A stretch of 12,707 nucleotides of DNA from Candidatus Nanopusillus sp. (lineage in GTDB: Archaea > Nanobdellota > Nanobdellia > Nanobdellales > Nanobdellaceae): contig JAPWTZ010000013.1 in the NCBI GenBank assembly GCA_028275775.1, positions 1-12,707 of the forward strand, written 5' to 3'. This document shows, in pieces, positions 695-8,251 of this stretch (within the stretch, counting starts at the first letter, position 1; each line of letters opens with the position of its first letter). The notes under the pieces are model-generated. The model was given only the letters and a program-made list of their open reading frames with translations. It searched no databases and had not been told where the DNA came from. The position numbers and the translations under genes are program-made.

Positions 695-703
695 TTTTAT
701 AAA
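695..703 (-). promoter_or_regulatory. TATA box for archease, positioned for a leaderless mRNA
   Basis: TTTATAAAA on the minus strand lies at -29..-21 from the archease ATG (674), immediately after the sRNA D box. Confidence 0.5.
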
Positions 704-751
704 TCAGTAGACCGACAATTCATCATTTTTCAGATTTTATATTCTCATCAT
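704..751 (-). ncRNA. C/D box sRNA (2'-O-methylation guide); coordinates give the core from C box to D box
   Basis: The minus strand reads ttatctttt-ATGATGA-gaatataaaat-CTGA-aaa-ATGATGA-attgtcggtcta-CTGA-tttataaaa. C box is 745-751, D' 730-733, C' 720-726 and D 704-707. All four boxes are perfect. Guides are 11 and 12 nt, with a 3-nt D'/C' linker, which is the standard archaeal architecture. It lies entirely in an intergenic spacer. Confidence 0.85.
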
Positions 752-790
752 AAAAGATAAATATATTAAATTTTTAAATAAATATATTTT

Positions 791-1328: not shown

Positions 1329-1721
1329 ATGGAAAATAATCAAATATCAAAAGAACAAATTAATGATATAATAAAAGAATTATGGAATAAAGGATATACA
1401 CCATCTCAAATTGGAAAAGAATTAAAAGAAAAATATGGAATAAATGTTAAAGAAATATTAAATAAAAAATTGGTAAAATATGCAACAAAAGAATTAAATT
1501 TAAAACAAGAAATACCAGAAGATTTATTATATTTATTTAAAAAAATAAATAGGATGTTAAAACATTTAGAATTACATAAAAAAGATATTGTAACAAAGAA
1601 AAAATTAGAAGAACTTGAAAATAGAGTAAAAAGTTTAATAAAATATTATAAGAAAAATAAAAAATTACCACAAACATTTGAATATAGTAGAGATATAGCA
1701 AAGATGTATGGATATTCATGA
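1329..1721 (+). CDS. rps15: Ribosomal protein uS15 (S15P/S13e), N-terminally short form
   Basis: KGYTPSQIGKELKEKYGI and EIPEDLLYLFKKINRMLKHLELHKKD...LIKYYKK align with the archaeal S15 core (EGYSPSMIG...YGIP, EIPEDL...LRKHLE..KD...YYK). An in-frame TAA at 1320-1322 blocks any upstream extension. Confidence 0.85.
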   Translation: MENNQISKEQINDIIKELWNKGYTPSQIGKELKEKYGINVKEILNKKLVKYATKELNLKQEIPEDLLYLFKKINRMLKHLELHKKDIVTKKKLEELENRVKSLIKYYKKNKKLPQTFEYSRDIAKMYGYS

Positions 1722-3100
1722 ACAATAGATTTTTATCTTATATAGAAGAAATATCTAATAGAATAAATAAGGCAGTAGAAAATAAACAAAATTTTTTAAT
1801 CATATCTTCATTAAATCCTGATGGTTTGTCTTCTTCAATATTTTTATTAAAATATTTATATGAAAAAAATTCTGAAGTTCATTTAACATTTTTAGATTAT
1901 ATAAGTAAAAAGGAAATTAATAATTTATTTTTAGGTGAAAATGGATATGAATATGATAATATAATATTGTTAGATACTGGATCTATATTTTCAGATGATA
2001 TAATAAAATTGAATAAAGATTTAAATAAAAATATTTATATAATAGATCATCATTTTTTAATAATAAAAGATATTGAATTAAATAATGTTGTAAATCTTAA
2101 TCCAAATATTTTTAATTTAGATGGTTATAAAGAAATATCTACATCAAATATATTATATTATATATATCAGAGTTTAAATCCATATGATAAAAATATTTTA
2201 TATTTATCATTAATTGGAAATTTATATGATTTTAATAAACCAAATAATGAAATATTGAATGAATTAATTGATAGAGAAATATTATCAAAATATACTGGAA
2301 TAAATCTACCAGGTATATTTACAAAACCCTTATATAAAGTATTAAGTTCTCCTTTTAATTTTTATATCCCAAACATTACTGGGAGTGATGAAAAAGCTTT
2401 AGAACTAATAAAAGAATTAAATATAAAGGATAAAGGAACTGCAAATGTATTTTATAAAGATTTATCTGAAGAAGATATTAAAAAAATAGTTAGTAATATA
2501 ATAAAATTAAAATTAAAATATAATTTACAAAGAACAGATGATCTAGTAAGTGAAATATATAAGATTAATAAGAATGAAGAGATTGGGGACTTGTTAGAAT
2601 TATTATATGATATTGAGGGATTGATTGAGAGTAATAAAAAAGAAGGGATATTATATTTCATTAAAAAATATAATGTTGATATTTTAAGAGAATCTGAGAA
2701 TAATTTGAGATTACAATTTTCAAAATTATTATATGATATAATAAATAATAATGTAAAAATAAAAGATGAAAACGGATTAAAGATAATAACAATTGAGAAA
2801 AATTATGGAAATGGATATTTCTTATCTCTATTATTGGATCTTCTAATTAGAGAAAATATAATAAATGGAAAGGTTTTCATTTTACTATATAAAGTAAATA
2901 ATTTTTATAGAGGAATAATTAAGACAAATAAGGATGAAAACAAAAAACTAATAAATAATATATTGAAAAGATTATTTGATAATAATTTAATTTATTATTC
3001 TAGCTTTGATAATTTTGGAGGTTTTTTATTAGATATAAATAATTATGAAGAATTTATTAAAAAATTAAAAATAGATTTGAAACAAGAAAATCTTATATAA
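1718..3100 (+). CDS. DHH-family RecJ/Cdc45(GAN)-like protein with partly degenerate catalytic motifs
   Basis: DHH motif III is intact (IYIIDHHF) and motif II is LLDTGS. Motif I reads SSLNPDGLSS, so the second Asp of DxD is replaced by Leu. In place of the C-terminal GGGH there is only FDNFGGF. The start overlaps the rps15 stop (ATGA). Confidence 0.7.
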   Translation: MNNRFLSYIEEISNRINKAVENKQNFLIISSLNPDGLSSSIFLLKYLYEKNSEVHLTFLDYISKKEINNLFLGENGYEYDNIILLDTGSIFSDDIIKLNKDLNKNIYIIDHHFLIIKDIELNNVVNLNPNIFNLDGYKEISTSNILYYIYQSLNPYDKNILYLSLIGNLYDFNKPNNEILNELIDREILSKYTGINLPGIFTKPLYKVLSSPFNFYIPNITGSDEKALELIKELNIKDKGTANVFYKDLSEEDIKKIVSNIIKLKLKYNLQRTDDLVSEIYKINKNEEIGDLLELLYDIEGLIESNKKEGILYFIKKYNVDILRESENNLRLQFSKLLYDIINNNVKIKDENGLKIITIEKNYGNGYFLSLLLDLLIRENIINGKVFILLYKVNNFYRGIIKTNKDENKKLINNILKRLFDNNLIYYSSFDNFGGFLLDINNYEEFIKKLKIDLKQENLI

Positions 3101-5096: not shown

Positions 5097-6170
5097 ATGG
5101 ATTTTTCAGATATAGCAAAAGAGATAAAAGATTCAAATGAAGAAATATTAATAGTAGCAGATTCTGATCTGGACGGAAAAATGGCATTGGGATTAATGAA
5201 AATAATATTAGAAAAATTAAATAAGAAATATATGGAATATTTTAGAATTGCTGGAGAAAATAATTTAGATCTAATAAAGATATTGGATGGAATAATATTT
5301 AATAAGAAAACAATAAATACAATAATATTTCTAGATACACCAATGGATGACAAATATTTAATTAATTTTTCTAAAAGGCATGAAAAAATAAAGATAATAT
5401 ATTTAGACCATCATAAAAGAAAGGTTCCAAGAATTTTACCAAAAAATTTAATATATTTTGATGTAAGAGCATTATTTAATTTAGAAATATGTACAACAAG
5501 TATATCATATAGAATTGGAAAAATATTATTTGGTGAAAAATTTTCAAAATATTCTTTATTAGCATCTATTGGAGCTGTAGGAGATTTTATGTTAGAAAAT
5601 GATAAAGAACTATTAGATGATTTATTAAAGAATTACAAAGGATTTTATAATGGTAAATATTTTTATGTTCCATACATATTATATTTTTATCTATTTTTAA
5701 TATCAGATCCATATAAAATATCAAAAAATATTGATAAAGCATTAAATATTGAAGAATTTATAAAAGAATTTGATACAAAAAAATTAAAGAATGAAGCAGT
5801 AAAATATTATGATAGATTAAAAAGCGCTAAAAAAATATATGAATCTGAAAAATTGTTAGTATTTAAAGCAAAGAAATCTTCAGTTATATCTACAATTTTA
5901 TCATCATTTTATCCTGAAAAAATAATATTAGTATTATCTTTAAAAGAAAAATTATTTGGAAGATTATTTAAAGGAAAATATAAAAGATATAGCATATCTT
6001 TAAGGAATCAATCAGGAAAATATGATTTGGGAATATTAATGAGAGAATTTACAAAAGAATATGGAATAAATGGCGGAGGACATCCAAAGGCAGCAGGTGG
6101 GTTAATATATGAAAAAGATATAGAAAATTTGATAAAATTTTTAGAAGAAAAAGCAAATGGAAAGAATTAG
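5097..6170 (+). CDS. DHH/DHHA1 phosphoesterase (RecJ-like or NrnA-like nuclease) with intact catalytic motifs
   Basis: Motif I is IVADSDLDG, motif II IFLDTP, motif III IYLDHHKR, motif IV GAVGDF, and the DHHA1 signature is NGGGHPKAAGG. Length is 357 aa. Confidence 0.8.
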   Translation: MDFSDIAKEIKDSNEEILIVADSDLDGKMALGLMKIILEKLNKKYMEYFRIAGENNLDLIKILDGIIFNKKTINTIIFLDTPMDDKYLINFSKRHEKIKIIYLDHHKRKVPRILPKNLIYFDVRALFNLEICTTSISYRIGKILFGEKFSKYSLLASIGAVGDFMLENDKELLDDLLKNYKGFYNGKYFYVPYILYFYLFLISDPYKISKNIDKALNIEEFIKEFDTKKLKNEAVKYYDRLKSAKKIYESEKLLVFKAKKSSVISTILSSFYPEKIILVLSLKEKLFGRLFKGKYKRYSISLRNQSGKYDLGILMREFTKEYGINGGGHPKAAGGLIYEKDIENLIKFLEEKANGKN

Positions 6171-6681: not shown

Positions 6682-6782
6682 GCCGCCGTAGCTCAGGGGT
6701 TGGAGCGCCTGGCTCATAACCTCTAAAATCGATGAGTTTGTGGGAAACCAGGAGGTCCGGGGTTCAAATCCCCGCGGCGGCA
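6682..6782 (+). tRNA. Intron-containing tRNA with anticodon CAU (elongator Met, or Ile2 if C34 is modified), no encoded CCA
   Basis: The sequence is GCCGCCG-TA-GCTC-AGGGGTTG-GAGC-G-CCTGG-CTCATA[intron]A-CCAGG-AGGTC-CGGGG-TTCAAAT-CCCCG-CGGCGGC-A. The mature length is 73 nt. It is not initiator-like because it has a G1-C72 pair and a U29-A41 pair in the anticodon stem. Confidence 0.9.
6719..6746 (+). other. 28-nt tRNA intron at the canonical 37/38 position with a bulge-helix-bulge motif
   Basis: Nucleotides 32-35 (CUCA, 6713-6716) pair with UGGG (6741-6744) to form the 4-bp central helix, which includes one G-U pair. Three-nt bulges flank it: UAA (6717-6719) and AAA (6745-6747). The inner helix is weak (CUC 6721-6723 with GAG 6734-6736). 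Confidence 0.75.
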
Positions 6783-6791
6783 TTTATAAAT

Positions 6792-7136
6792 TCATTTTAA
6801 TAACTTTTTCTCTATATATTCTCTTAATGCAATAGCATTATTATATGGAGATTTAGAAGAATAAAGTAAAGTGATATTTTCATTTTTTCTAATTAATTGT
6901 ATAAGTTCATTAATTTTTGAATTTTTATCTAATTCATCAAAATATTTCCTTTTAAATTCTTCCCATTTATTAGGATCATGATTATACCATTTTCTTAATT
7001 CATTACTGGGTGCTATATCTTTAAGCCAAATATCTACTTTATCCTTTTTAATACCCCTTGGCCATAATCTATCTACTAAAATTCTAATTCCATCATCTTT
7101 TTCTATAGGATCATATACTCTCTTAACTTTTATCAT
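6792..7136 (-). CDS. DUF488 / YeaO-family protein
   Basis: [27 protein letters not shown]...APSNELRKW...TLLYSSK closely parallels E. coli YeaO ([27 protein letters not shown]...TPSTELRK...TLLYSAK). Confidence 0.88.
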
Positions 7137-7168: not shown

Positions 7169-8251
7169 TTAACTAGATGCATTGTATACTTGTTGCGGAT
7201 TAGTAAATTTGAAAAAGGCCCAACCAGAAGGACTAGAAGTTATACCATACGGAATAATAGTTTCATTATTTGGTAAGACCAATACATATCCTCCAATAAA
7301 ATCTGATCCATACTGATATAGTTTTGTTTCGAATGCTACTGTTCCTGTTGCATTTGGCCAATAAAATACAGGTGAATTTTCTGGTAAAAATACTGTTGTA
7401 TTTCCTGATAGTTGTGGTAATAATGCTGCCGTTGTTCCCGGTGTATTCATTGCTGCTACAAAGTTGGGTATCCATCCTTGGTATGTGTAGAATCCTGCAA
7501 TATTTGCTAAGTTTATTATATTTGCTTGTATTACATAATATGTTTGCCCATTTATTGTTATCTGTTGAATTGGTATTGGACCTTTAATTACATAAACATC
7601 TTGTAAAGGTAAATATGATTGTCCATTTAATGGATCTACAGGCCTTGCCCATGAATTATTACTTACCCACACACCATTTAATTGAGTTATTTCATTATGA
7701 TTATAAACTATCATGCCTGAATATTGACCATCCCATATTGTATTGTGTATTATAGTTCCATTATTTAGTATTAAATCACCTTCAGGATCTATATGTCCAT
7801 CATAATTTATTACACCTTTTGGTACAAATCCTTCATATCCAGTAGATCCTATATATTGTATATGTCCATTATTTGGAGGTATTAATCCATGTATTCCAGA
7901 TAATGTAAATAATACAAAAAAGGCAATACCAACTCCTACTAATGCATATCCTACAATTCTGCCTACAAGGCCTCCATATGCTCTTGTTGCATATAATCCT
8001 GCCATAAAAGAAGTTCTCATATAAAGCGGTAATGCTGCCATTGCAGCGCCTCCTATTATTGGCCAATATTCTGATATTCTATCTTTAACTTTTTTAAGTC
8101 CATAATAAGTTTTATCTCTTATTTCTCTTAATCTTTCGTCTAAATATTTTGGAAATTCTTTAATATTATTTTTAATTTTCCTAAAGTTAATTTTTGCATT
8201 ATTTTCTATTTTATTTAAAATACTGTCTAAATCATCATCAAATAGTTGCAT
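7169..8251 (-). CDS. Membrane-anchored protein of unknown family: N-terminal cytoplasmic helical region, 2-3 TM helices, and a C-terminal beta-rich exported domain of about 230 aa
   Basis: The 360-aa ORF has a charged N-terminus (about 60 aa) and a hydrophobic block from WPIIGGAAMAAL to IAFFVLFTLSG. The following domain is rich in G/P/Q/W/T/N and has only about 4 Lys, plus several N-x-S/T sequons. TTTTAAAG lies at -28..-21 from the ATG. Confidence 0.65.
   Translation of the reverse strand: MQLFDDDLDSILNKIENNAKINFRKIKNNIKEFPKYLDERLREIRDKTYYGLKKVKDRISEYWPIIGGAAMAALPLYMRTSFMAGLYATRAYGGLVGRIVGYALVGVGIAFFVLFTLSGIHGLIPPNNGHIQYIGSTGYEGFVPKGVINYDGHIDPEGDLILNNGTIIHNTIWDGQYSGMIVYNHNEITQLNGVWVSNNSWARPVDPLNGQSYLPLQDVYVIKGPIPIQQITINGQTYYVIQANIINLANIAGFYTYQGWIPNFVAAMNTPGTTAALLPQLSGNTTVFLPENSPVFYWPNATGTVAFETKLYQYGSDFIGGYVLVLPNNETIIPYGITSSPSGWAFFKFTNPQQVYNASS

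Follow-up and report, generated by a model that had tools for sequence, protein, structure and literature searches.

What lies in the 116 bp (positions 675-790) between the divergent archease and PEBP-family genes of a nanoarchaeal genome, and what could it do there? We refer to the whole stretch of DNA analyzed, 12,707 nucleotides, as the window. It comes from the genome of a terrestrial nanoarchaeon in the Nanopusillaceae group; archease homologues carry the source names Nanopusillaceae, Nanoarchaeota, or Nanobdella aerobiophila, and the exact archease protein also occurs on contigs of JGI and ENA metagenome assemblies. Archaeal genomes are under-annotated for C/D box sRNAs, and an initial annotation, made from the sequence alone, had placed the gene of such an RNA in the spacer (range 700-756, comprising a 48-nt core and short flanks). 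We conclude, with a probability of about 0.82, that the minus strand at 751..704 encodes a single-guide archaeal C/D box sRNA of about 50-55 nt, which would guide 2'-O-methylation in this Nanopusillaceae nanoarchaeon. Our confidence that it is a real, conserved C/D box sRNA is high; our confidence in any specific methylation target predicted from the guide is low.

A four-box element in the archease-PEBP spacer

The minus strand from 751 to 704 reads ATGATGA-N11-CTGA-AAA-ATGATGA-N12-CTGA (Table 1). An archaeal C/D box sRNA is recognized by two terminal boxes, C (RUGAUGA) towards the 5' end and D (CUGA) towards the 3' end, by well-conserved internal counterparts D' and C' with only a short linker between them, and by spacers of 10-13, typically about 12, nt. 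All of these are present in the element, whose spacers measure 11 and 12 nt and whose linker measures 3 nt; its relatives have spacers of 10-13 nt and linkers of 3-4 nt (AAG, UAAA, AAA, UAA, UUA, or GGG). No open reading frame of at least 20 amino acids was found across 680-790. The predicted fold was no better than that of shuffled controls (z = +0.8); a K-turn RNA whose guides are unpaired should behave in this way.

Table 1. Features of the archease-PEBP spacer in the window and corresponding segments of related elements
Feature	Sequence	Position	Strand	Remarks
Archease gene		216-674	minus	PF01951, E=7e-29; same strand as the sRNA, directly downstream of it
PEBP-family gene		791-1297	plus	PF01161, E=1e-27; divergent from the sRNA and archease
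Palindrome	TTTAAA	773-778		22-27 nt ahead of box C; candidate box A/TATA for a promoter of the sRNA's own
Candidate PEBP TATA element	AATATATTAA	760-769	plus	22-31 nt upstream of ATG 791; predicted from sequence
Box C	AUGAUGA (ATGATGA)	751-745	minus	Read directly; invariant in the five window-clade sequences
D' spacer/guide	GAATATAAAAT (RNA GAAUAUAAAAU)	744-734	minus	Read directly; 11 nt, 9% G+C
Box D'	CUGA	733-730	minus	Invariant in the window clade
D'-C' linker (K-loop)	AAA	729-727	minus	Read directly; 3 nt
Box C'	AUGAUGA	726-720	minus	Invariant in the window clade
D guide	ATTGTCGGTCTA (RNA AUUGUCGGUCUA)	719-708	minus	Read directly; 12 nt, 42% G+C
D-guide conserved core	UGUCGGUCU			Positions 2-10 counted from box D
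Guide nucleotide G712	G	712	minus	Fifth nucleotide upstream of box D
Box D	CUGA	707-704	minus	Invariant in the window clade
Element 3' of box D	TTTATAAA	703-696	minus	Follows box D immediately; archease TATA box candidate (-29..-22 from ATG) and/or T-rich end of the sRNA transcript
L005, same-species variant	D' spacer GAATCTAAAAT; D guide GTTGTCGGTCTA
L012 (MAG)	D' spacer GAAAAATAATT; D guide ATTGTCGGTCTT
L008 (AP031373.1)	D' spacer GATAAAAAAT; D guide AATGTCGGTCTA			Own guide string AAUGUCGGUCUA
L010 (Nanobdella)	D' spacer AAGAATTATGT; D guide TCTGTTCGGTCTC			Own guide string UCUGUUCGGUCUC, 1-nt insertion
L245 element	ATGATGA-ACTGCCAGTCTC-CTGA-TAA-ATGATGA-TAAAAATCTTG-CTGA	L245:409-456
L247 element	GTGATGA-ACTGCTTGGTCTT-CTGA-TTA-GTGATGA-ACTGAACTGCCT-CTGA	L247:2918-2967
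L252 element	ATGAAGA-ACTGTCGGTCTC-CTGA GGG ATGATGA-GAACTGCCTCGA-CAGA TAA ATGAAGA-AACGAACTGCCA-CTGA	L252:1880-1975		Logan SRR29446202_2434

Strict and relaxed four-box patterns were searched on both strands of the window, and each returned a single site, the 751..704 element. A looser scan of the 12.7 kb, in which box C could have one mismatch and the internal boxes could be degenerate, again gave no second site. UGA-containing motifs are frequent in A/T-rich DNA, and no Rfam family is matched at its gathering score (see below); one could thus take the boxes for a chance arrangement or for a decaying, functionless pseudogene. Against this, neither the strict nor the loose pattern occurred once in 3000 first-order Markov simulations of the window, and in related genomes the four boxes and the guide core are kept while the flanking spacer sequence has diverged. 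The conservation described below effectively refutes this reading.

The initial annotation stands on its main points: direct reading bears out the four perfect boxes with archaeal spacing, and the ORF coordinates confirm both the 116-bp spacer and the 29 nt (703-675) from box D to the archease ATG. The gene call itself is upheld by boxes and spacing, by syntenic conservation, and by sub-threshold Rfam matches that are almost all to C/D families. That box D abuts a TATA-like element of archease also holds, and in relatives too: TT.TAAA follows box D invariantly in the alignment of five window-clade sequences, and TATA-like strings lie 3' of box D in L245 and L252 as well. The description of this packing as unusual does not hold, since sRNA genes within 25 nt of their neighbors, or overlapping them, are common in archaea, and maturation needs the boxes only (PMC7994747). 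As judged from these sequences, it is plausible that the sRNA 3' end and the archease promoter share the same DNA, and the arrangement is conserved. A TATA box at -29..-22 from the archease ATG would imply a leaderless archease mRNA.

Upstream of box C, the TTTAAA at 773-778 agrees with box A of N. equitans in both sequence and distance; the consensus there is TTTAAA, some 26 nt ahead of the transcription start (PMC3491384). T/A-rich elements lie at a similar distance in relatives. The sRNA is probably transcribed from this putative promoter of its own and would end in the T-rich stretch after box D. It could equally well be matured from a longer sRNA-archease transcript, as RNP formation sets the mature ends; most archaeal sRNAs have no promoter of their own and are cut from longer transcripts (PMC7994747). 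Since TATA-like strings abound throughout a genome with a G+C content of about 22%, promoter and terminator motifs count as weak evidence here.

The two tRNAs of the window have 60-63% G+C, and such a contrast with the ~22% of the window is expected of a thermophile. One of them, with anticodon CAU (6682-6782, plus strand), has a 30-nt intron in the anticodon loop; it was detected by Rfam (59 bits) and missed by ARAGORN, and it is conserved in L008, L010, and L012. The intron contains a GAUGAG string and lacks a full C/D box set. Between 6000 and 8000 the window has 30-33% G+C compared with about 20% elsewhere. This segment contains a DUF488 ORF (6792-7136, minus strand); a 360-amino-acid ORF at 7169-8251 (minus strand) has no Pfam entry in the contig gene table. 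The segment may be variable or acquired, since different ORFs are found there in relatives. Two DHH-family proteins are encoded less than 4 kb apart (1718-3100 and 5097-6170, both plus strand), and both are conserved in relatives; one combines DHH with DHH-CID (Arc_Cdc45 matches in relatives), the other DHH with DHHA1.

Conservation of the boxes and guides upstream of archease

The element was found directly upstream of archease in eight further lineages, including Nanobdella aerobiophila, in which archease is 54-98% identical to that of the window; the linkage is kept despite a changing upstream neighbor. Three named genomes share the gene order around archease and have the element in the archease-PEBP spacer: AP031373.1 (GCA_042850255.1, 773 kb), a Nanopusillaceae MAG, and N. 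aerobiophila AP019769.1 (GCA_023169545.1), with archease identities of 86%, 87%, and 74%, respectively. We aligned five sequences of this window clade: the window itself, L005, L012, L008, and L010. The box conservation that the initial annotation had proposed to look for in relatives is complete, with all 22 box nucleotides invariant. Its contrast between a G+C-rich D guide and an A/U-rich D' guide (42% versus 9% G+C) extends to conservation: 9 of 12 columns are invariant in the D guide and 3 of 11 in the D' spacer (Fisher p = 0.039 in the five-sequence alignment).

The window, L005, L008, and L012 share the nine-nucleotide core UGUCGGUCU without change, as does the distant L252; Nanobdella has UGUUCGGUCU. 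Variation in the D guide is limited to positions 1, 11, and 12, at which pairing is dispensable. Two changes in the same-species variant L005 are instructive: an A-to-G change at D-guide position 12 keeps pairing with U, whereas one pair would be lost through an A-to-C change midway along the D' spacer. The D' spacer drifts in both sequence and length (10-11 nt) among close relatives that share an invariant D-guide core, which fits the earlier suspicion that the D' guide is non-functional. Its further remark that such asymmetry is unusual can be set aside, because orphan guides are common in Pyrobaculum (PMC6009581) and in N. equitans (PMC3491384). Invariant boxes together with one conserved guide are the signature of a functional C/D box sRNA with one selected guide. 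As judged from the aligned genomes, these patterns show that the boxes and one guide have been under purifying selection in the related genomes.

The boxes are also retained in L245, L247, and L252, in which archease is only 54-59% identical; the element still lies directly upstream of archease, and the upstream neighbor is different. Box C in more distant relatives is R/AUGAUGA or AUGAAGA, and in L252 three C-guide-D half-units follow one another in tandem, some of their boxes being the variants AUGAAGA and CAGA. In these three relatives the conserved guide (...YUG..GGUCU.) comes first, in the D' slot; in the window clade an A/U-only spacer precedes it, and it takes the second (D) slot. This shift of slot indicates that the locus underwent half-unit turnover or circular permutation. 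From the sequences compared, the window RNA looks like a former dual guide turned single guide. Circular permutation, guide replacement, and orphan guides are documented in Pyrobaculum (PMC6009581), and N. equitans is known to have a permuted, circularized sRNA (PMC3491384). Another guide family, GAACUGCC, was seen in relatives only; it is complementary to LSU rRNA GGCAGUU, a candidate target present next to the P-loop and, in rRNA of the N. equitans type, in the H93/A2602 region.

Always found right before archease, on its strand and 29-42 nt from its ATG, the element might instead be a cis-acting leader, co-transcribed with archease, whose K-turns bind L7Ae to control archease translation or stability. 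The persistence of the linkage while the upstream neighbor changes (PEBP, S15, and others) is in keeping with such a leader, as is the excision of most archaeal sRNAs from longer transcripts (PMC7994747), and L7Ae-bound K-turns in archaeal mRNA leaders are reported (PMC5539422). A cis-acting K-turn, however, would require neither two complete box pairs at an exact spacing of 11-12 nt nor a 9-nt guide core that stays identical between lineages whose archease is only 54% identical. The core has no complement in archease or nearby, and a TATA-like element separates box D from the ATG in all lineages. Moreover, three archease loci have no element in the upstream spacer: Ca. Nanopusillus sp. (L243/L244), L250, and Nanoarchaeota NZ13-N (L251). 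We consider a leader of this kind improbable and retain the trans-acting sRNA. The three loci without the element have different upstream neighbors, and L251 has a 457-bp gene-free spacer.

Archease is a cofactor of the RNA ligase RtcB. One may speculate that the archease-upstream locus is a modular array of C-guide-D half-units, subject to duplication, loss, and circular permutation, in which turnover proceeds via circular sRNAs and the archease linkage reflects functional coupling. The arrangements could then be written as orphan-conserved for the window clade, conserved-orphan (or conserved-second guide) for L245 and L247, and a row of three half-units for L252. If this were true, the stable linkage to archease would stand for ligase-dependent maturation or circularization of the sRNA, and not for mere synteny; we regard the proposal as a long shot.

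Predicted mode of action and candidate targets

By the established mechanism of archaeal C/D RNPs, L7Ae would bind the C/D K-turn and the C'/D' K-loop, and Nop5 and fibrillarin would assemble on the sRNA. The D-guide core would pair with a target containing 5'-AGACCGACA-3', and fibrillarin would 2'-O-methylate the first C of this string, which pairs with G712, in line with the N+5 rule (PMC6009581). The A/U-rich D' segment would serve only to maintain the 10-12-nt distance between K-turn and K-loop. From its composition and drift it is most likely an orphan spacer, and the sRNA probably works as a single-guide RNA. In Pyrobaculum 28% of guides are orphans (PMC6009581), and several N. equitans sRNAs have one guide without a predicted target (PMC3491384); N. 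equitans expresses 26 sRNAs that closely resemble the window element, and it has fibrillarin and Nop56 (PMC3491384).

The drift of the D' segment, which at 10-11 nt falls short of 12 nt, could instead be a sign of a fast-evolving target. Both guides would then be functional, the D' guide acting on a fast-changing A/U-rich RNA such as an mRNA or a tRNA intron. Boxes D' and C' are indeed as perfect and as conserved as C and D, and the ancestor was probably a dual guide, given that both spacers of L247 contain G and C and that L252 has three half-units. Yet neither the sequence nor the length (10-11 nt) of the D' spacer is constant among close relatives, and it varies even within the species; an 11-bp A-U duplex would be unstable at hot-spring temperatures. 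Nor can a specific target be defined: complements of the D' guide with up to two mismatches occur by chance dozens of times per 12 kb of genome. For archaeal orphan guides in general, no conserved targets outside rRNA and tRNA were found (PMC6009581). Function of both guides thus appears very unlikely, and we return to the single-guide reading.

The target of the D guide most likely lies in rRNA. Searches of the rest of the window and of about 90 kb from related loci gave no complement of either guide, and no local target of the D guide was seen; the two local tRNAs are not targets of the guides. Two LSU rRNAs of unrelated archaea (L249 and L255, flanking G+C about 55% and 31-39%), retrieved via spurious ORFs inside rRNA genes, gave guide matches of only 8-9 bp. 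A/U-only D' spacers scored equally well, so that 8-9 bp marks the noise floor. An rRNA search with a concatenated six-frame query gave no match. Probe and primer sequences for nanoarchaeotal 16S rRNA (Wurch, 2016) matched viral contigs by chance only, and a full-text literature search for guide or target strings returned irrelevant papers only.

Four candidate sites were taken from the rRNA of other species, using alignments of seven archaea (PMC4644070, supplements). The junction of helices h32 and h33 in 16S rRNA fits the lineage variation of the guides best, as a resemblance to other species' rRNA only (Sulfolobus acidocaldarius GAGACCGCAGUAUGA, N. equitans CUGACAGCACAAUGA, consensus GCGACAGCAGGAUGA); in guides and junction alike, the GAC and CA(R)N flanks stay constant and the middle between them varies in length. 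A second candidate is GAGACCGAUAGCG in domain I of 23S rRNA (E. coli ~445), with which the window guide pairs at positions 2-11, including two G.U pairs. By our own estimate about 0.16 matches of this type are expected by chance per rRNA set. The corresponding N. equitans site is GAGUCCGAUAG, and the published sRNA lists of seven archaea contain none of the complementary guide strings tested. The 5' strand of 23S H93, UUUAGACCGUCGUGAG (UUUAGACCG...; E. coli 2584-2597), offers only 7 contiguous pairs with the archaeal consensus; it would fit only if pair 2593-2600 were swapped in the nanoarchaeal lineage, and H93 does vary in N. equitans.

A site in 23S domain III (E. coli ~1605-1620; archaeal GAGAACCGACACAGGU, N. 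equitans GAGAACCGUGACAGGU) was also considered and is not supported. Its GAGA...CAG(G)U flanks resemble predicted targets, but a scan of genome contigs returned bacterial 23S and chance matches, a scan of metagenomes returned chance matches, and neither gave nanoarchaeal rRNA. With both scans negative we disfavor the site.

N. equitans 23S rRNA (PMC4644070, supplementary file 2) and the archaeal LSU rRNA L249:1-2401 both have AGUAGGGUGACCGAA where other archaea have AGUACCGUGAGGGAA, which looks like a flipped stem of a small GNRA hairpin. In N. equitans H93 there are compensatory changes, GUACGCC-GCGA-GGCAGUGU. As "universal" rRNA helices thus vary in N. equitans and L249, target prediction from the rRNA of other species becomes harder.

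Comparison with known C/D box sRNAs

Among Rfam families, no non-tRNA match reached gathering score. A search with archaeal C/D models, suggested along with the original gene call, was informative only below threshold: the best match on positions 600-900 was sR5 (RF01304; 24.5 bits against a threshold of 40, E = 7e-4), and sR2, sR3, snoPyro_CD, and others were matched too, almost all of them C/D families. Boxes and spacing align with sR5 over the full model (1-53 of 53). The likeness is confined to the boxes and the guides are unrelated, so the element is not a member of this family.

The 26 C/D box sRNAs of N. equitans (Randau, 2012, PMC3491384), from the same phylum, are closer in form. They are compact (50-60 nt) and have no terminal stem, with D'-C' linkers of 3-4 nt and spacers of about 12 nt. 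Some have TTTAAA box A promoters, their genes are packed against or overlap neighbors, and several have a single guide with a predicted rRNA target. Their AUGAAGA and CAGA box variants are those seen in L252. They differ in their guides, none of the 26 published sRNAs having a ...CGGUCU... guide; hence the element is not an orthologue of a described RNA. The hosts differ as well, the present one being a terrestrial Nanopusillaceae member with about 22% G+C.

No C/D box sRNA of Nanopusillaceae or Nanobdella was found described in the literature searched. With no curated Rfam membership and no orthologue among the described N. equitans sRNAs, the element is effectively a new family of a well-known kind of RNA. 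It leaves our understanding of how C/D box sRNAs work unchanged. What it provides is a clean, conserved example in genomes of 0.6-0.8 Mb that could seed a lineage-specific sRNA model, and one predicted 2'-O-methylation, at the first C of AGACCGACA, for comparison with rRNA. The relatives add a natural series at a fixed locus, from dual guide to single guide and with half-units permuted, which illustrates a known mode of evolution.

That mode has been described for the C/D families of Pyrobaculum (Lui et al., 2018, PMC6009581). There, as here, a conserved guide is accompanied by a diverging orphan guide, short indels occur at guide ends, and guide replacement and circular permutation distinguish homologues. 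The present family belongs to another phylum and has other guides, and its permutation took place at a fixed locus upstream of archease, whereas in Pyrobaculum it followed transposition.
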